From a virus (lineage: Duplodnaviria; Heunggongvirae; Uroviricota; Caudoviricetes), in the IMG/VR virus record IMGVR_UViG_2579778601_000008, positions 1 to 34,844 of that record: a DNA stretch of 34,844 nucleotides. One strand, 5' to 3'. The first letter of the stretch is position 1; each line of letters opens with the position of its first letter. The notes below the pieces were generated by a model. The model did not search any database, was not told where the DNA came from, and saw only the letters and a list, made by a program, of their open reading frames with translations. The translations under genes were made by a program, and so were the position numbers. This document shows positions 7,465 through 34,844 of the stretch, piece by piece.

Positions 7465-8064
7465 ATGGCTGATATTGATTTATCTGGACAGTCCCCAGAG
7501 CAAGGAACCACTCCTAAGGGCGATTCAGATCCTGATATCCTTATAAGGCGAGATAGACGGGATGGTATAGAGCGTAGAAGTATGCGATTAGTGCTCTCTG
7601 CCGTTGTGCTTTGTTTTGCTTGTACATTTCTATGGCAGGGGCTTAACTTTGCTTTGGCTGTTGGAAATGGCTTGCTGGAAGCGAAAAGCAGTATTGCCGC
7701 AGCGATAACACAAAAAGTAGATACACAAACTTGTGTTTCAGCAGAAAAATGTTCTGCTTTATCTTCGGATCCGAAGATGGCTGATGAGAGGATAACACCA
7801 TCTTCAGACACTAATAAAGTTAGAAAATCTATTTCTGGTTTATCCACCGATTGGTTATCGGCCAGTTCTCTAATAGCTATTGTTGCATTCATCCTTGGTG
7901 TGGGTTTAACTTTGCTTTTGACTCTTCTTAAATCAGCATTTCAACACCCGACAGATAAAGACTTTAGAACAAAGTCGACATCTAATACTATTGAGTTGGC
8001 CACGCCAATCAGTGAATTAATAATTGGTGTTCTGAATATAATTAAAGACAAACTATCTAAGTAA
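7465..8064 (+). CDS. Predicted two-TM membrane protein of unknown function
   Basis: 199-aa ORF; charged N-terminus (RRDRRDGIERR); hydrophobic segments LVLSAVVLCFACTFLWQGLNFALAV and SLIAIVAFILGVGLTLLLTLL; two Cys in the intervening loop; amphipathic C-terminus; co-oriented with the peptidase gene. Confidence 0.6.
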   Translation: MADIDLSGQSPEQGTTPKGDSDPDILIRRDRRDGIERRSMRLVLSAVVLCFACTFLWQGLNFALAVGNGLLEAKSSIAAAITQKVDTQTCVSAEKCSALSSDPKMADERITPSSDTNKVRKSISGLSTDWLSASSLIAIVAFILGVGLTLLLTLLKSAFQHPTDKDFRTKSTSNTIELATPISELIIGVLNIIKDKLSK

Positions 8065-8146: not shown

Positions 8147-9088
8147 TTATATTTTTAATGTTAGTGAATGATATTCACGAGAGTTCACGTTCGATGTGAT
8201 GTAATCGGGGGCGTTAACACCAAGAATCGCAACGAGTAATCGGCAAATTAAAGCCTGCATTTGTTGTAATATGTCATCTCCATATTGATAATTGTTAATA
8301 GTGGTAAAGCCAAGTGGTTGACCATGAAACATAGCTTCATGAAAGTTTTCATTGCGGATGTTTGTAATGTTTTTTTTGCCTGTAACCCATGATGGTCGTG
8401 GTATTCCATAAGTTTTGCAGATCCACTTCAAGCGCCTGGAGTGATTTAGAGTCTTTTCTGTACACTTGTTCTTTTCTGCCCATGTTAAAGCAAAGCAACT
8501 ATCCAGTGCCATATAAAGATACTGGAATTTTTCGAAGCTAAGGTATTGTGGGTTTTGGGATAAAAATAGTGCATGCACTATTGCTGCTATATTTATTGGT
8601 GCGTGTTTGGTTTTTGTCTCGCTAGACATGTATTTGAGTGCTAATTCTATAACCTCTTTTTCAGAGCACTTGACCAGAATAAAGTCAGTTAATTTGCTGG
8701 GTTTTATTGGGGTTGCGTCTAAAAAACCGGCATCAGTAGTTGTTAATCTTATCCCTTTGAAAAAAGACAGACACCACACAGCAAAATTGAGAGTTTCTAG
8801 TGAAGATGTATTTTTTAATTTTAGTGAGTGTGTTTTGGGTAAGCCAAATACTCGTTGGCTAAAAGGCATTGTGGATATGCCTCCATTGAGGTTATATACT
8901 TCTTGGTTTCCTGGGTATATCCAACCGTTAATAACATTTCTGTGATTGTTTATAAGATTTGTTTTTTCCGCTAGACCGGGTAAAGTAAGTAAAGAAAAAT
9001 CATCAGTTTCAACGTTAACTTCTACTGGATAGTATCCAAACTCAGCTTCAATATCATTGGATTGCTGTTCGTCAACTTTACCTTGCAT
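8147..9088 (-). CDS. Hypothetical 313-aa protein with RNxxxH motif (possible HEPN-type nuclease)
   Basis: Long ORF in a markedly AT-rich stretch, convergent with the two upstream genes; GGAG 6 nt upstream of ATG; motif RNENFH near residue 245; no P-loop or HEXXH seen. Confidence 0.65.
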   Translation of the reverse strand: MQGKVDEQQSNDIEAEFGYYPVEVNVETDDFSLLTLPGLAEKTNLINNHRNVINGWIYPGNQEVYNLNGGISTMPFSQRVFGLPKTHSLKLKNTSSLETLNFAVWCLSFFKGIRLTTTDAGFLDATPIKPSKLTDFILVKCSEKEVIELALKYMSSETKTKHAPINIAAIVHALFLSQNPQYLSFEKFQYLYMALDSCFALTWAEKNKCTEKTLNHSRRLKWICKTYGIPRPSWVTGKKNITNIRNENFHEAMFHGQPLGFTTINNYQYGDDILQQMQALICRLLVAILGVNAPDYITSNVNSREYHSLTLKI

Positions 9089-21187: not shown

Positions 21188-23806
21188 ATGAGCACGAAAT
21201 TTAAAACCGTTATCACTACTGCCGGAGCCGCGAAGCTGGCAGCCGCTACTGTTCCCGGCGGGAAAAAAGTAAACCTGTCTGCAATGGCTGTGGGTGACGG
21301 TAATGGCCAATTGCCGGTGCCGGATGCCGGTCAGACGAAACTGGTGCATGAAGTCTGGCGTCACGCTCTGAATAAAGTCAGTGTGGATAACAAGAATAAA
21401 AACTATATCGTGGCTGAACTGGTTGTTCCGCCAGAAGTGGGCGGCTTCTGGATGCGTGAGCTTGGTCTGTATGATGATGCCGGAACACTGATTGCGGTAT
21501 CCAACATGGCAGAAAGCTATAAGCCAGAACTGGCTGAAGGCTCCGGACGTGCGCAGACCTGCCGCATGGTTATTATTCTCAGTAACGTGGCGTCCGTTGA
21601 GCTGAGTATTGATGCCAGCACAGTGATGGCGACGCAGGATTACGTCGATGACAAAATCGCAGAGCATGAGCAGTCCCGCCGCCATCCTGACGCCACACTG
21701 ACAGAAAAAGGTTTTACTCAGTTAAGCAGTGCAACAAACAGCACCAGTGAGTCATTGGCGGCAACGCCAAAAGCGGTCAAGGCAGCAAATGACAACGCAA
21801 ATTCACGTCTGGCGAAAAATCAGAATGGTGCAGATATCCAGAATAAATCAGCTTTTCTGGAAAATGTTGGCGTTACCAGCCTGACGTTTATGAAAAACAA
21901 TGGCGAAATGCCGCTTGATGCTGATCTGAATACATTTGGTCCTGTTAAGGCTTATTCAGGTATCTGGTCTAAAGCAACATCCACCAACGCAACACTGGAG
22001 AAAAATTTCCCTGAAGACGGTGCAGTCGGTGTGCTTGAGGTATTCAATGGCGGTAATTTTGCAGGAATGCAGCGTTATACCACCAGAACAGGCAATGTTT
22101 ATATGCGCAACCTTTCTGGCACCTGGAATGGCTCAGACGGTCCGTGGAGCTACTGGCGTCAGATTCAGTCAGCAACACGCCCCCTGAGTACAACCATTGA
22201 CCTGAACACGCTCGGAGGCGCAGAGCATCTTGGCTTATGGCGAAACAGTAGTGGCTCTATCGCTTCATTTGACCGCAACTATCCGGAAGAAGGAAGTTAT
22301 GGTCAGGGACTCCTTGAAGTTCTTGAAGGTGGTGGGTACTCACGCATGCAACGCTACACGACCCGCCGTGGGGATGTATATGTTCGCTGCCTTTCTGCTA
22401 CATGGAATGCAGAGAATCCACAGTGGGAACCGTGGTTAAGAGTCGGTCATCAGTCAGAGAGTCGTTATTACGACGGGGATTTGAATGATGTGACTTCACC
22501 AGGTATTTACAGCGTTACAGGTAAAGCGACCAACGGTCCAATACTGGACGGAAACGGCGTGACAGTCCTCGGGATTCTGGAAGTGTTGAGGCGCTTTGAT
22601 GGTGTTAACGTATGGCAGCGTTATACAACTGCCGGAACAGGTGCAACCCTTAAAGGTCGCACGTTTGAGCGCGTCTATACCGGCAGCTCGTGGAGCGAAT
22701 GGCGGGAAGTCTACACCTCGTATTCACTTCCCCTGAATCTGGGTATCGGCGGTGCTGTGGCAAAGCTCACCAGCATGGACTGGCAGACCTACGACTTTGT
22801 GCCGGGCAGTCTGATAACCGTTCGGCTTGATAACATGACCAACATTCCCGACGGTATGGACTGGGGCGTCATTGATGGCAACCTGATAAACATCGCAGTG
22901 GGTCCGAGTGATGATTCCGGTACGGGGCGCTCAATGCATGTATGGCGCAGCACCGTAAGTAAAGCGAACTACCGCTTTTTTATGGTGCGTATTTCAGGAA
23001 ATCCGGGAAGTCGCACGATCACCACAAGACGTGTGCCAATCATTGACGAAGCCCAGACATGGGCGGCGAAACAAACCTTCAGCGCCGGTCTTTCAGGCGA
23101 ACTGTCCGGCAATGCTGCTACAGCAACAAAGCTGAAAACGGCAAGGACAATTAACGGCGTAAAATTTGACGGCTCGGCAAATATTGAAGCGTTTCCGCCA
23201 GGTGTTCCGCTGCCGTGGCCATCAGATACACCACCTGCAGGCTATGCAATTATGCAGGGGCAGACGTTTGATAAGGCTGCATATCCGAAACTGGCTATTG
23301 CCTATCCTTCTGGTGTTATTCCAGATATGCGCGGCTGGACAATCAAGGGCAAACCCGCCAGTGGGCGTGCCGTATTGTCACAGGAACAGGACGGGATTAA
23401 ATCGCATACTCACAGCGCCAGTGCGTCAAATACGGATTTAGGGACGAAAACGACCAGTTCATTTGATTACGGCACGAAGACAGTCAGTACGTTTAACTAC
23501 GGAACAAAAACCACTAATACCACAGGTAACCATACACATACCATTTACAGAGGGAATGCCAATACTAATGGTGAAACCGGTAAAACAGGCTTTGACAACC
23601 CATCGTTTAATGGCACATCAGGAGCTGCCGGGAATCATGCCCACACGGTAGATATTGGCGCACATAATCATACGGTTGGTATTGGTGCACATTCACACAC
23701 GGTTGCTATTGGCTCACACGGGCACTCTATTACCGTTAATGCTACAGGTAATACCGAAAACACCGTCAAAAACATCGCATTTAACTATATTGTGAGGCTT
23801 GCATAA
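21188..23806 (+). CDS. H: Tail fibre protein H (conserved N-terminus, divergent extended distal part)
   Basis: 872-aa ORF; N-terminus [25 protein letters not shown]... is P2 gpH-like; three tandem ~85-aa repeats in the middle; His-rich GxHxH repeats near the C-terminus. Confidence 0.9.
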
Positions 23807-24384
23807 TGGCTTTCAGAATGAGTGCAGAAGCACAAACTATCCACGTATTTAATTTACTTGATGGAACCAATGAATTTATTGGGGAAAGTGACGCATATAT
23901 CCCACCGTACACTGGCCTGCCTGCAAACAGTACAGATATTGCACCACCTGATATTCCAGCTGGTTATGCAGCCGTTTTCAATGCAGACGAAATGAAATGG
24001 GAACTGATGGAAGACCATCGCGGAAAGACTGTCTACGAAACGAAAACGGGAGCAGCCATTTATATTTCTGAACTTGGCGTATTACCTCCAGACGTGACAG
24101 CCATTTCCCCGGATGGGGATTATCAGAAATGGAACGGCAATGCGTGGGTGAATGATGAGAATGCAGAGCGTGATGCGCTTGTCAGAGCGGCGGAGTCTCA
24201 GAAGAAAGAGCAGATTGCATATGCAGGTGAAATCATTGCCACGCTGCAGGATGCTGTCGATTTAGATATGGCTACCGAGGAAGAAAAGTTAAGTCTGACA
24301 CACTGGAAAAAATACCGTGTGTTACTGAATCGCGTTCAGCCGGAAAATGCCCCGGATATTGAATGGCCGGAACTACCGCAATAA
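23806..24384 (+). CDS. G: Tail fibre assembly chaperone (Tfa-like)
   Basis: 192-aa ORF starting at the H stop; resembles Tfa-family tail fibre assembly proteins. Confidence 0.85.
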
Positions 24385-24388
24385 ACAC

Positions 24389-24418
24389 AGGCGGGCTGAT
24401 TGCCCGCCTTTTCTTTAC
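24389..24418 (+). terminator. Intrinsic terminator after G
   Basis: Hairpin AGGCGGGC-TGAT-TGCCCGCCT followed by a T-rich tract. Confidence 0.65.
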
Positions 24419-26722: not shown

Positions 26723-26797
26723 CAATGTAAAATTACAGGTATTGCTCAGGGCTGTTGACCAGGCATCCCGCCCGTTTAAATCCATCCGCACAGCGAG
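26715..26797 (+). pseudogene. T: Tape measure protein T, N-terminal fragment (cut by IS insertion)
   Basis: ATG at 26715 encodes MSNNVKLQVLLRAVDQASRPFKSIRTAS, then the frame runs into the IS terminal repeat. Confidence 0.8.
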
Positions 26798-26882
26798 TGC
26801 GTATTACCGTGAAGGAGATCGGTGAGTAACATCGATGGAGATCGGTTCGTGTCACTTTCACAGAACCGTTTTTAAATTACCT

Positions 26883-27632
26883 TCACTGATCTCCTTCGGT
26901 CAACGGAGATTGTATTTTCCGCATTGATTCTCCTTTAAGTTCGATCTTGATACTGCCATGAACCAGTCGATCTAGGATGGCATCCGCATGTGTGGAGTCT
27001 CCGATCATTTTGTACCAGTTTTCCACCGGCAACTGGCTCACTACGATGATTGAGCCTCGTTGGTACATCAGATCCACTATTTCCAGCAGGTCGCTACGCT
27101 GTTCTGATGAGAGAGGTTCCAGCCCCCAGTCATCCAGAAGCAGCAGATCGCTATTATTCAGCCTGGTCAAAAGTTTGCTGTATCTTCCATCAGCATGCCC
27201 CTGATAGCACTGTTCCATCAGCGCTTTAAGGCGATAATAGTAGACCTTGTATCCCTGTCGGCAGGCATTATGACCAAGTGCACATGCCAGGAACGTTTTA
27301 CCGCTGCCGGTGGCCCCGGTCAGTAAAATATTTTGTTTCAGGGTTAACCAGTTTCCCTGACTGAGTGAACGGATGAGGGCCCTGTCCAGCCCTCTATTGT
27401 TACGATAATCCAGCTTTGATAACTCAGCATTAAGTCTGAACCGTGCATGTTTGATCAGACGCTCTGCCTTCCTGTTTTCACGGCAGGTTAGTTCTTCTGC
27501 TGTCAGTAATGACAGGCGTTCTTCGAAGCCCAGCTCCTGGTATGTGCCCGGTTGAGCAAGTTGCTTTTTAAGCGCATCACGGAAGCCGGTGAGTTTAAGT
27601 GCGGTCAGTTGTTCGTAAAGATGATTCATCAT
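26883..27632 (-). CDS. istB: IS21-family helper ATPase IstB
   Basis: 249-aa ORF with Walker A (GATGSGKT) and Walker B (LLLLDDWG) motifs, typical of IstB. Confidence 0.9.
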   Translation of the reverse strand: MMNHLYEQLTALKLTGFRDALKKQLAQPGTYQELGFEERLSLLTAEELTCRENRKAERLIKHARFRLNAELSKLDYRNNRGLDRALIRSLSQGNWLTLKQNILLTGATGSGKTFLACALGHNACRQGYKVYYYRLKALMEQCYQGHADGRYSKLLTRLNNSDLLLLDDWGLEPLSSEQRSDLLEIVDLMYQRGSIIVVSQLPVENWYKMIGDSTHADAILDRLVHGSIKIELKGESMRKIQSPLTEGDQ

Positions 27633-27643
27633 TGGATCCCGTA

Positions 27644-29185
27644 TCAGTGGTAATACTCACTGCCGCGTACGTTTTCGTGTTCCATCGTGGATAACAGATC
27701 TGGTTTTGGATCCTGAACAGGTTGTTTATCCAGACCTTTTTCCAGGATCGATTTAATACCTGACAGACGCCATACCTTTGTTTTCAGAGCTCTTGCACAT
27801 GCTGCATTAAGTCTGGCTTTACTGTATTTTTTATGAAGGTTCAGGAGTCCAAGGCAGAAGCGATAGCTTTGTTCCGGATGTGGACGAGAGTTCAGTATAT
27901 GAAGCACATAACTATGAGTTTCACTGCCTATGTGCCCCGCCCATTCCAGAAGACGCTCTGGCGTCCAGGTGGCATGCTGTCGATGAGCTTCAGGCATGTG
28001 CTCGTTGCGGGTACTGTAGCCATAAGTACGCTTGCGCGGGTGCACAGCAACCTCCTGCCCCTGATTGAAGAGTCTTACCAGTTCTCCGGAGATCCATGCT
28101 TCCAGTTGCTGGCCTAACAGCGAACATGGAACCGAGTAGTAATGTTTGTCGATTTCCACGTGGTAATCGGCATGAACTCTGACTTTCTTCACCAGGGTGT
28201 AACTGTAACTGGCTTCAGGAAGAGGCTTCAGTGCGGGTTTATCAAGCTGGATGAAGAGTTCTGCACGTGAATAACCCAACTTCTGCATTATTTTGTTATT
28301 CAGTCTTTCCAGCAACTCCCGAATGCGCTGATTAAGCGATGCAAGGCTGTAGAAGATCTCATGCCTGATTCGGGCCATGATCCAGCGTTCAACAACCTGA
28401 ACGCCAACTTCAGCTTTGGCTTTATCTTTCGGTTTACGTGGCCGCGCAGGCAAAACTGCGACATTATAATGCTCAAGCATCTGCTGGTAGGTAGGGTTAA
28501 CGTCAGGATCATACTTACATGCCCTGGATGTGGCGCTTTTCAGATTGTCCGGAACAACAAGTTCAGGAACGCCACCCAACCACTGGAAGCAGCGAACATG
28601 ACTCATCACCCAGTCTTCAAGCTGCTGAGACCAGGTGGCCTCTGCCCATGTGTAACTTGATGCCCCGAGAACAGCTACGATGACCTGAGCAGTTCTTATT
28701 TCTCCGGTCTCAGGGTCGGTAACGCCAACGGTAGGTCCACAGTAATCAACGAAAAGTTTTTCGCCAGCTTTATGTACCTGACGCATTGATGGTGAAGTGG
28801 TTTTGAGCCATTCACGGTACATCCGGCAGTAATGGTTATAGCTGTAAAAACCGCCTGGATTACGCTCACAGTATTCTTCCCAGAGTAGCTGCAGCGTCAC
28901 GCATTTATTACGCAGTTCCCGGTGTACTGTAGCCCAGTCAGGCAGAGAGTGCTTCTTCATCTTAACCTGGGTCTGAAGGAACGCATGTTTTAGTTTTGTA
29001 TCATCCCATCCTGTAGGTAAGGGCCACTGCTTTATGCCAAGTTGAGCCGCCCGATTAGCATATCTGGATACAACGGAAGGGGAGATTGCAAGACTACGAC
29101 CAATTTGTCGATGGCTGAGTCCAACACCGTATTTAAGCCTAAGAATTTCTTTAAGTTTTCTCATAGAAATTGGAACTGTTGGCAT
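27644..29185 (-). CDS. istA: IS21-family transposase IstA
   Basis: 513-aa ORF with an N-terminal HTH and DDE-type integrase core, immediately upstream of istB. Confidence 0.9.
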   Translation of the reverse strand: MPTVPISMRKLKEILRLKYGVGLSHRQIGRSLAISPSVVSRYANRAAQLGIKQWPLPTGWDDTKLKHAFLQTQVKMKKHSLPDWATVHRELRNKCVTLQLLWEEYCERNPGGFYSYNHYCRMYREWLKTTSPSMRQVHKAGEKLFVDYCGPTVGVTDPETGEIRTAQVIVAVLGASSYTWAEATWSQQLEDWVMSHVRCFQWLGGVPELVVPDNLKSATSRACKYDPDVNPTYQQMLEHYNVAVLPARPRKPKDKAKAEVGVQVVERWIMARIRHEIFYSLASLNQRIRELLERLNNKIMQKLGYSRAELFIQLDKPALKPLPEASYSYTLVKKVRVHADYHVEIDKHYYSVPCSLLGQQLEAWISGELVRLFNQGQEVAVHPRKRTYGYSTRNEHMPEAHRQHATWTPERLLEWAGHIGSETHSYVLHILNSRPHPEQSYRFCLGLLNLHKKYSKARLNAACARALKTKVWRLSGIKSILEKGLDKQPVQDPKPDLLSTMEHENVRGSEYYH

Positions 29186-29378
29186 AGGTATCCTTTACCG
29201 GAATGGCAAAAGATACAGATCAACACACCTGTGAAGTTCCAATAACATTGATGGAGATCACTGAATAACAAAATGAGTCAAAAGTGATCTCCATCGATGT
29301 TATTCAGCGATCTGTTCAAATGTTATTACCCGATCTCGATGGAAGTTATTGAGTGATCTCCTTTCATGAAAATACGCA

Positions 29379-31748
29379 GCGAGTAAGTCGCTGTCGGGGG
29401 ATATCCGGGAAACACAAAAATCACTGCGCGAGCTGAATGGTCACGCATCCCGTATTGAGGGATTTCGCAAGACTAGCGCACAGCTTGCCGTGACTGGTCA
29501 TGCACTTGAAAAGGCACGGCAGGAAGCCGAAGCCCTTGCCACACAGTTTAAAAACACCGAACGTCCGACCCGTGCTCAGGCGAAAGTGCTGGAATCCGCA
29601 AAGCGTGCGGCGGAGGACTTACAGGCGAAATATAACCGCCTGACGGATTCCGTTAAACGCCAGCAGCGGGAACTGGCCGTTGTGGGAATTAATACCCGCA
29701 ATCTTGCACATGATGAGCAGGGACTGAAAAACCGTATCAGTGAAACCACCGCACAGCTTAACCGTCAGCGCGACGCGCTGGCGCGTGTCAGTGCGCAACA
29801 GGCAAAACTTAACGCAGTAAAACAGCGTTATCAGGCCGGAAAGGAACTGGCCGGAAATATGGCCTCAGTGGGCGCTGCCGGTGTGGGGATTGCTGCTGCG
29901 GGAACGATGGCCGGAGTTAAGCTGCTGATGCCCGGTTATGAGTTTGCGCAGAAAAACTCAGCATTGCAGGCCGTGCTCGGAGTGGCAAAAGACTCCGCCG
30001 AAATGACCGCACTCCGCAAACAGGCGCGCCAGCTCGGCGACAATACCGCAGCCTCGGCGGATGATGCAGCCGGTGCACAGATTATCATTGCGAAAGCCGG
30101 TGGGGATGCTGCGGCTATTCAGGCGGCAACGCCGGTCACACTGAATATGGCACTGGCAAACCAGCGGTCGATGGAAGAAAACGCGCAACTGTTGCTGGGG
30201 ACTAAGGCATCCTTTCAACTGTCAAATGATGATGTCAGCCATGTGGGCGACGTGTTGTCGGCAACGATGAATAAGTCGGCGGCTGATTTTCAGGGACTCA
30301 GTGATGCACTGACTTACCTCGGTCCGGTTGCGAGGACGGCAGGTGTAAGTCTTGAACAGGCAGCGGCCATGACAGGTGTGCTGCATGACAATAACATCAG
30401 GGGGTCAATGGCGGGTACGGGTGGCAGTGCCGTTGTCACCCGATTACAGGCACCGACTGGAAAAGCATGGGATGCACTCAAAGAGCTTGGCGTTAAAACC
30501 TCGGACAAAAAGGGAAATATGCGTCCGTTGTTCACCATTCTGAAAGAGATTCAGGCCAGCTTTGATAAACACAAGCTGGGAACGTCTCAGAAGGGGGAAT
30601 ACCTTAAAACCATTTTTGGTGAGGAAGCCCTGAAATCAGCGAACGTTTTACTGGCAGCGGCAGCAAGCGGAAAACTGGATAAGCTGACCGCCACGCTGAA
30701 AGCCTCGGACGGTAAAACGGAAGAGCTGGTTAAAATCATGCAGGATAACCTCGGTGGTGACTTTAAGGAGTTTCAGTCCGCTTATGAGGCGGTGGGGACT
30801 GACCTGTTTGACCAGCAGGAAGGCACACTGCGTAAGCTCACGCAGACGGCCACAAAGTATGTGTTAAAACTCGACGGCTGGATCCAGAAAAACAAATCAC
30901 TGGCGTCAACCATCGGCATCATTGCCGGTGGCGCGCTGGCGCTGATTGGCATCATCGGTGCAATTGGTCTTGTAGCCTGGCCGGTTATCACCGGCATCAA
31001 TGCCATCATCGCGGCAGCAGGCGCAATGGGGGCAATCTTCACGACGGTTGGCAGTGCTGTTATGACCGCCATCGGGGCTATTAGCTGGCCGGTTGTGGCC
31101 GTGGTGGCTGCCATTGTCGCCGGGGCGTTGCTTATCCGTAAATACTGGGAGCCTGTCAGCGCATTCTTTGGCGGTGTGGTTGAAGGGCTGAAAGCGGCAT
31201 TTGCGCCGGTGGGGGAACTGTTCACGCCACTGAAGCCGGTGTTTGACTGGCTGGGCGAAAAGTTACAGGCCGCGTGGCAGTGGTTTAAAAACCTGATTGC
31301 CCCGGTCAAAGCCACCCAGGACACCCTGAACCGTTGCCGTGACACGGGCGTCATGTTCGGGCAGGCACTGGCTGACGCGTTGATGCTGCCGCTTAATGCG
31401 TTCAACAAACTGCGCAGTGGTATTGACTGGGTACTGGAAAAACTCGGTGTTATCAACAAAGAGTCAGACACACTTGACCAGACCGCCGCCAGAACTCATG
31501 CCGCCACGTATGGTACCGGTGACTATATTCCGGCGACCAGCTCTTATGCAGGCTATCAGGCTTATCAGCCGGTCACGGCACCGGCTGGCCGCTCTTATGT
31601 AGACCAGAGTAAAAACGAATATCACATCAGCCTGACGGGTGGTACTGCGCCGGGGACACAGCTTGACCGCCAGTTACAGGACGCGCTCGAAAAATACGAG
31701 CGGGATAAACGTGCGCGCGCCCGTGCCAGCATGATGCATGACGGTTAA
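29379..31748 (+). pseudogene. T: Tape measure protein T, C-terminal portion (frame open from the IS junction)
   Basis: The frame resumes right after the IS (...KSLSGDIRETQKSLRELNGHASRIEGFRKTSAQLAVTGHALEKARQ...) and continues ~790 codons with the hydrophobic segments typical of tape measure proteins. Confidence 0.85.
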
Positions 31749-33860: not shown

Positions 33861-33941
33861 ATCCTCAATTTGCCTGCTGCTTAATGCATTGCAGATGATT
33901 TGCTTCCGTTATACTACCGTCAGTTGATAGCGGGAGTATTT

Positions 33942-34844
33942 ATGAATCAATCTTATGGACGGCTGGTCAGTCGGGCGGCGATTGCTGCGACGGCGATGGC
34001 TTCGCTGCTATTGCTGATTAAAATTTTTGCATGGTGGTATACCGGGTCGGTGAGTATTCTCGCCGCGCTGGTGGATTCGCTGGTGGATATCGGTGCGTCG
34101 TTGACGAATTTACTGGTGGTGCGATATTCCCTGCAACCTGCCGACGATAATCACTCGTTTGGTCACGGTAAAGCTGAGTCCCTCGCGGCGCTGGCGCAAA
34201 GTATGTTTATCTCCGGTTCGGCACTATTCCTGTTTTTGACGGGTATTCAACATCTGGTATCTCCAACACCGATGACAGATCCAGGCGTCGGGGTTATCGT
34301 GACAATTGTGGCGCTAATTTGTACGATTATCCTTGTCTCGTTTCAGCGTTGGGTGGTGCGCCGGACGCAAAGCCAGGCGGTGCGGGCTGATATGCTACAT
34401 TACCAGTCTGATGTTATGATGAACGGCGCAATTCTGCTGGCGCTGGGGTTGTCCTGGTACGGCTGGCATCGCGCCGATGCTCTGTTTGCATTGGGGATCG
34501 GCATCTATATTTTATATAGCGCGTTACGCATGGGATATGAGGCGGTACAGTCATTACTGGATCGCGCATTGCCTGATGAGGAACGGCAAGAAATTATTGA
34601 TATCGTGACTTCCTGGCCGGGTGTTAGCGGCGCTCACGATCTTCGCACGCGGCAGTCAGGGCCGACCCGCTTTATTCAGATTCATTTGGAAATGGAAGAC
34701 TCTCTGCCTTTGGTTCAGGCACATATGGTGGCGGATCAGGTAGAGCAGGCTATTTTACGGCGTTTTCCGGGATCGGATGTGATTATCCATCAGGACCCCT
34801 GTTCCGTCGTACCCAGGGAGGGTAAACGGTCTATGCTTTCATAA
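33942..34844 (+). CDS. fieF: Host cation-efflux pump FieF/YiiP (cation diffusion facilitator)
   Basis: Start at [35 protein letters not shown]...; ~300 aa with multiple TM helices and a C-terminal cytoplasmic domain; matches enterobacterial FieF as I recall it. Confidence 0.85.

Follow-up and report, generated by a model that had tools for sequence, protein, structure and literature searches.

Which structure does the histidine-rich 3′ end of a prophage tail-fiber gene encode, and did the repeat that runs through it arise recently? The gene lies in a 34,844-nt stretch of DNA that was analyzed whole and is called the window here. A preliminary description of the window had proposed a metal-coordinating trimeric tip at the distal end of the fiber protein H, and had taken nucleotide-level repetition in the same place as a sign of recent expansion.

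A mosaic tail-fiber gene in a P2-like prophage

The window corresponds to an E. coli prophage of the P2-like (Peduovirus) type. Its ORF list includes an 872-aa tail-fiber protein, the product of gene H; the identical gene in E. coli S14 carries the RefSeq label phage tail protein. Gene order in the identical S14 prophage is J-I-H-tfa-FI-FII (FI, sheath; FII, tube), so that H has gene I on one side and, beyond tfa, the tail sheath gene on the other, the position of gpH. The features that define the gene and its distal module are as follows:

21188..23806, plus strand: gene H, mosaic tail fiber of the P2-like (Peduovirus) prophage, N-terminal part P2-type and tip gp37/Stf-type
23139..23154 (approximate), plus strand: mosaic junction; megablast matches extend no further than query nt 1952 or 1967, and the match to 2XGF starts at aa 653
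23201..23344 (aa 672–719), plus strand: Collar domain (Pfam PF07484, E 2.2e-10), aligned to the collar of gp37 (D10) in 2XGF

Pfam places three domains on H: Phage_tail_fib (residues 1–151), Phage_fiber_2 (170–211), and Collar (672–719). The first of these, a PF12571 match with E 2.4e-57, is the P2-type N-terminal baseplate-attachment domain. For the third, we took the limits of the gp37 domains, including the collar D10, from the published description, in which T4 gp37 residues 1010–1026 form part of D10 (PMC6957217).

Nucleotide comparison separated the two ends of the gene. Many Peduovirus H genes share 88–94% identity with it over gene nt 1–1952 or 1–1967 (megablast), and among phage records the 3′ part is common only to Peduovirus P24A7b; H is therefore a mosaic. 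The junction falls at about aa 651–656, where similarity to most Peduovirus H genes stops and the gp37/Stf-type module starts. The segment comprising the tip and the adjoining tfa gene is 100% identical to the chromosomes of E. coli S14 and 21964, and at least 80% of it is present in 116 of 5426 complete E. coli genomes.

Between these ends, aa 256–530 (21953–22777) appear by eye to hold three tandem shaft domains of ~85–95 aa with the pattern G.LEV....(8-10)..QRYTT..G..Y.R....W....W; these three internal domains went undetected in a blastp self-comparison of H. By analogy, they may resemble the tandem Knob domains of R-pyocin fibers (PMC6116203).

HxH motifs cluster at the distal end of H

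The preliminary description had listed five GxHxH motifs at 23525–23735, and all five are in frame in the translation of 23525–23737. It had overlooked a sixth HxH motif, IKSHTHSAS (aa 740–742, nt 23405–23413), which lies upstream of that interval. Across the whole H protein, HxH occurs six times, with first residues at aa 740, 782, 817, 826, 835, and 844. They are listed with their T4 gp37 counterparts, the assignment of which is described below:

23405..23413, plus strand: HxH 1 (H740/H742, KSHTHS), equivalent to T4 gp37 H883/H885; 100% conserved in 112 sequences; within the best PF03335 Phage_fiber stretch
23531..23539, plus strand: HxH 2 (H782/H784, GNHTHT), equivalent to T4 H929/H931; predicted final descending-strand rung, next to the tip
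23636..23644, plus strand: HxH 3 (H817/H819, GNHAHT), equivalent to T4 H966/H968; predicted first rung of the ascending strand
23663..23671, plus strand: HxH 4 (H826/H828, GAHNHT), equivalent to T4 H980/H982
23690..23698, plus strand: HxH 5 (H835/H837, GAHSHT), equivalent to T4 H989/H991
23717..23725, plus strand: HxH 6 (H844/H846, GSHGHS), equivalent to T4 H998/H1000

Twelve of the 19 histidines of H fall within its last 140 residues. A generic possibility for any histidine-rich segment is that the stretch is compositional or surface-exposed—a pH sensor or an adventitious metal binder—and encloses no buried metal core; nothing specific to H adds to it. Shuffling speaks against that possibility: None of 20,000 shuffles of the whole protein reached six HxH motifs (maximum, four), and only 1 of 20,000 shuffles of the last 140 residues did so. 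The clustering of HxH motifs in H is beyond chance.

The H tip is homologous to the T4 gp37 needle, and its HxH motifs are in register with six of the seven iron sites

The preliminary description had named alignment to gp37-type tips as a check on its proposal, and this alignment supported the proposal: H 653–872 matched chain residues 16–242 of 2XGF, the T4 gp37 receptor-binding tip, with E 3e-76 (phmmer, PDB sequences), and six HxH motifs came to lie on iron sites. By tblastn, the 220-aa tip was 59% identical to T4 gene 37 and 60% identical to lambda orf-314 (the Stf C-terminus), at 98–100% coverage, and 629 phage records matched it in a search of phage genomes. Identities were 69% to T4 and 71% to lambda in a four-sequence MAFFT alignment. 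Profile matches agreed in kind: PHROG 295 (tail fiber protein) matched H with E 1.5e-127, and PF03335 Phage_fiber, a 14-residue repeat, scored 25.4 bits against a cut-off of 20 over four stretches, the best at aa 735–748.

The structural background for this alignment is well developed. The gp37 needle coordinates seven iron atoms along its length, the three copies of H929 form one metal-binding site, and alanine at H929 or H931 abolishes plaque formation (PMC6957217). Tip residues ~932–963 of the same protein bind LPS/OmpC (PMC6957217). In gp37 (2XGF), R-pyocin fibers, and the P2 gpV spike, one HxH from each of three chains forms an octahedral six-histidine Fe(II) site (PMC6116203). Conservation of HxH extends to lambda and other phages (PMC11705849).

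H has six HxH motifs, T4 gp37 seven, and lambda eight. Those of T4 gp37 start at 883, 915, 929, 966, 980, 989, and 998, where T4 numbering is the fragment position plus 800, from gene coordinates. Six of the seven T4 iron sites have an in-register HxH in H, and the H915/H917 site is absent, according to both the phmmer alignment and an L-INS-i alignment that took in relatives with six, seven, and eight HxH motifs, including closer seven-HxH ones. Three further segments of the tip follow from the same alignments and from the homolog comparison below:

23462..23509 (aa 759–774), plus strand: duplicated F[DN]YGTK unit; its second copy stands at the place of the T4 GGHTHS (H915/H917) iron site in the L-INS-i and phmmer alignments
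23540..23629 (aa 785–814), plus strand: hypervariable tip loop, presumed receptor-contacting head; equivalent to T4 gp37 tip residues ~932–963
23726..23803, plus strand: conserved C-terminal tail, predicted to return to the collar; with almost no differences among T4 gp37, lambda Stf, and all homologs

One competing register was considered. Default MAFFT equated GNHTHT with T4 GGHTHS and set GNANT under T4 GEHSHY, which would have made the missing site one with an H-to-N substitution. We rejected this pairing because the phmmer alignment, the L-INS-i alignment, and the bookkeeping of strand lengths agree on another: GNHTHTIY pairs with GEHSHYIE in both the phmmer–2XGF and the L-INS-i alignments, and the corresponding lengths in H and T4 are 40 vs. 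44 residues for H742–H782, 25 vs. 30 for H819–H844, and 32 vs. 34 for the head. Because H lacks a counterpart to one of T4's seven iron sites, the local geometry of its needle must differ from that of 2XGF.

A monomer AlphaFold2 model of H 653–872, run as one chain with a 42-sequence alignment, gave a pLDDT of 55.6 and a pTM of 0.20. Low scores of this kind are as expected for a single chain of an intertwined trimer.

Histidines are near-invariant and the head loop is hypervariable

We aligned H with 111 homolog clusters that have a complete C-terminus (n = 112 sequences), drawn from 1447 matches at E ≤ 1e-10. All 12 HxH histidines were 99–100% conserved across the 112 sequences, and the middle residue of each motif varied. 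Mean identity to the 111 clusters was 0.18 in aa 785–814 vs. 0.88 elsewhere. Conserved histidines together with a variable loop are the pattern expected of a metal scaffold that bears a hypervariable receptor-binding head.

This conservation also bears on the compositional or surface-exposed reading: The histidines are invariant while the residue between them varies freely, and the region is 59–71% identical to a crystal structure in which these very residues are buried iron ligands. We regard a tip with no buried metal core as extremely improbable. The proposal of a metal-coordinating trimeric fiber tip at the distal end of H thus finds its support in the 2XGF homology, the six in-register motifs, and the near-invariant histidines, and remains a prediction from sequence. 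By the same route we infer the trimeric state, the identity and occupancy of the metal, and the receptor-binding role of the H tip.

Six was the commonest HxH count among close relatives. Among 105 evaluable close homolog clusters, 98 had six motifs, two had five, four had seven, and one had eight. In the L-INS-i alignment, the seven-HxH proteins (T4 and some prophage fibers) carry GxHTHS and a 5-residue insert in the ascending strand (SFGTS/SGTAA); the six-HxH proteins carry the second F[DN]YGTK unit and have no 5-aa ascending insert, a correlated indel between the needle strands that was noted with homologs P0050, P0056, P0091, and P0110. Judged by these sequences, both strands of the H needle seem to be shorter by one rung than those of the seven-HxH class. 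It is conceivable, although we hold this only tentatively and rate it somewhat below an even chance, that the family evolves needle length in whole rungs, with iron number and length tuned on both strands and perhaps matched to receptor depth, and that the H head recognizes a receptor not yet assigned.

The tip is linked to a lambda-like Tfa chaperone

A gp38/Tfa-type chaperone gene lies directly downstream of H; the last base of the H stop codon (TAA) is also the first base of the chaperone ATG:

23806..24384, plus strand: tfa, tail fiber assembly chaperone, 192 aa (Pfam Caudo_TAP, E 6.6e-40; PHROG 105, tail fiber assembly)
24389..24409, plus strand: terminator-like hairpin downstream of tfa, G+C-rich and followed by a T-rich tail; consensus scan only

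Identity of the encoded Tfa is 65% with lambda Tfa (orf-194) and drops to 29% with T4 gp38 (E 4e-19). The chaperone gene follows the tip and its product is lambda-like, so that the H tip and tfa make up a cassette like that of lambda Stf-Tfa. It has long been recognized that T-even, lambdoid, and P2-like phages exchange tip-plus-chaperone cassettes horizontally. Apart from the hairpin after tfa, a promoter and terminator scan around the region yielded nothing beyond chance.

The 27-nt repeat is an old structural periodicity

The nucleotide-level repeat noted in the preliminary description is present but modest. Tandem Repeats Finder (TRF) reports it at 23642–23718 with a period of 27, 2.9 copies, and 78% matches, and a repeat search found three 29-nt copies, 27 nt apart, at 76–83% identity. 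In codon register it comprises four units of the ascending strand:

23627..23734, plus strand: four 27-nt (9-aa) units in codon register; nucleotide-level repeat with positional counterparts in T4 and lambda

The repeat could have arisen by recent slippage or unequal recombination of the 27-nt unit, which would make the GxHxH units new and their number labile in this lineage. A tandem periodicity of 27 nt is indeed detectable in H, and HxH number does vary from 5 to 8 across the family. Pairs of units within the gene share 10–21 of 27 nt; the best pair, units 2 and 3, reaches 21/27, and unit 2 is marginally nearer its own unit 3 (21) than lambda unit 2 (20).

Comparison across phages speaks against a recent origin. 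T4 gp37 and lambda Stf have four ascending-strand units at the positions that these occupy in H; H unit 3 vs. T4 unit 3 and H unit 4 vs. lambda unit 4 each match at 22/27 nt, at least as well as any pair within the gene. Neighboring units often encode identical amino acids with different codons: Aligned by codon, the two units quoted in the preliminary description agree at 21/27 nt, and of the seven amino acids that they share, two are encoded by different codons. The HxH count likewise runs the wrong way for an expansion, with fewer in H (six) than in T4 (seven) or lambda (eight), and with six also the number in 98 of the 105 close homolog clusters. Recent duplication of the unit is very unlikely, and that part of the preliminary description is already largely refuted: The units match their positional counterparts in T4 and lambda as well as they match their neighbors. 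What underlies the 9-aa/27-nt periodicity is the structural repeat of the ascending strand, which is old and maintained by protein-level selection rather than produced by recent duplication; motif number does vary in the family, over deep time.

Proposed structure of the tip and identity of the metal

Taken together, the sequence evidence makes it very probable that the region is the needle domain of a receptor-binding tip of the T4 gp37/lambda Stf type, horizontally grafted onto the gpH of a P2-like prophage. What the sequences show is the homology to gp37 and Stf, the register of the HxH motifs, the pattern of conservation, the adjacent chaperone gene, and the mosaic origin of H.

Modeled on gp37, three H chains would descend from the collar, turn in the hypervariable head (aa 785–814), and return upward. 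The HxH motifs of all three chains would face inward at every rung, and the six imidazoles would hold a buried Fe(II) octahedrally on the threefold axis, giving six irons per H fiber, one fewer than in T4. These irons may lock the chain register during folding and stiffen the needle, in keeping with the proposed role of HxH iron in setting the register of three folding chains and tuning stiffness (PMC6116203). The Tfa encoded immediately downstream would assist folding, and the variable head loop would decide the surface receptor.

The metal itself could differ within the same HxH architecture. Zinc occupies the HxH site of the T4 gp12 short tail fiber in its crystal (PMC6116203), the H collar domain belongs to the Pfam family of the gp12 collar, and sequence cannot reveal metal identity, so that zinc or another divalent ion deserves consideration. 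Against this, the homologous solved structure is that of gp37, not gp12, and has iron in exactly these sites; the zinc of gp12 may have been introduced artifactually during refolding; and iron is found in every natively purified HxH site listed in the same survey (PMC6116203). Homology of the gp12 type was not seen beyond the collar in the PDB sequence search, where the sole short-tail-fiber match was 9cuy_c (E 4.8e-5) over query residues 668–741, collar only. A metal other than iron therefore seems improbable to us, and Fe(II) remains the preferred assignment.

Relation to known fiber tips

The histidine-rich segment of H is a member of the well-described gp37/Stf tip family, and as such is already known biology. 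Similarity to T4 gp37 (2XGF; collar D10 plus iron needle D11) extends across the whole path from collar to needle, head, and return. A C-terminal stretch of 15 residues is identical, and both systems have a variable head and a dedicated chaperone gene downstream. H differs in having six rungs vs. seven, with an FNYGTK unit instead of GGHTHS (H915/H917); in an ascending strand that lacks the 5-aa SFGTS insert; in a head loop unrelated in sequence to that of T4; and in a chaperone that is lambda Tfa-like, only 29% identical to gp38. It is also mounted on a P2-type fiber shaft, whereas the T4 tip belongs to the gp34–37 long fiber.

Lambda Stf (orf-314, J02459) shares with H both the duplicated FDYGTK unit and four ascending HxH units, and many of the closest database homologs of the H tip are annotated as side tail fiber proteins of lambdoid prophages. 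Stf has eight HxH motifs, however, with a head insertion of ~40 residues that is much larger than in H, and it sits on a siphovirus side fiber rather than a myovirus baseplate fiber. The nearest relative among phages is the H and Tfa pair of P24A7b (LR595887/NC_049390), whose tip is 99.5% identical in protein to the H tip. The H-tfa region of P24A7b has 92% nt identity over 75% of its length and the same gene order; part of the central shaft differs, leaving 25% of the query uncovered. P24A7b is a sequenced phage genome, whereas the window holds an IS-interrupted prophage.

More distant analogies are provided by R1/R2 pyocin fibers and the P2 gpV and phi92 spikes, in which HxH motifs from three chains bind octahedral Fe(II) on the trimer axis, as may the motifs of H (PMC6116203). 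Those proteins have a single site each, on folds unrelated to the H needle, and the PDB sequence search with H returned no homology of the pyocin fiber or gpV/phi92 spike sites to the needle.

For annotation, the C-terminal 220 residues of gpH can be entered as a tip of the gp37/Stf type that has six predicted iron sites, the ORF at 23806..24384 as the Tfa chaperone of that tip, and H aa 785–814 as the likely host-range determinant. These assignments may serve host-range prediction and the engineering of P2-type fibers and tailocins; otherwise, they add little beyond annotation.

Other features of the prophage

A 2578-bp IS21-family element (26799–29376) is inserted 84 nt into the tape-measure gene T. 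It carries an IstB_IS21 ATPase gene (26883..27632, minus strand) and an IstA transposase gene with rve and Mu-transposase-C domains (27644..29185, minus strand), is flanked by an 8-bp target duplication (26791–26798 = 29377–29384), and is missing from the otherwise 99.98–100% identical E. coli S14 prophage. The interrupted copy probably cannot build tails; with the element in the tape-measure gene, the H fiber encoded by this copy may never become part of a virion.

A cargo region at the variable hot spot of P2 (6913–9088) separates replication gene A from portal gene Q. It encodes a 161-aa M78 peptidase that is CapP-like (PADLOC capP, 1.1e-30), together with a 199-aa ORF containing hydrophobic stretches (7465..8064, plus strand) and a 313-aa ORF (8147..9088, minus strand), neither of which had a Pfam or PADLOC match. 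The region is possibly a defense or regulatory cassette.

The prophage adjoins fieF in the E. coli chromosome, since its left end (1–1011) is a tyrosine integrase gene (Int_N and Phage_integrase) and its right boundary is fieF (33900–34844); in S14, pfkA follows beyond the point where the window ends.
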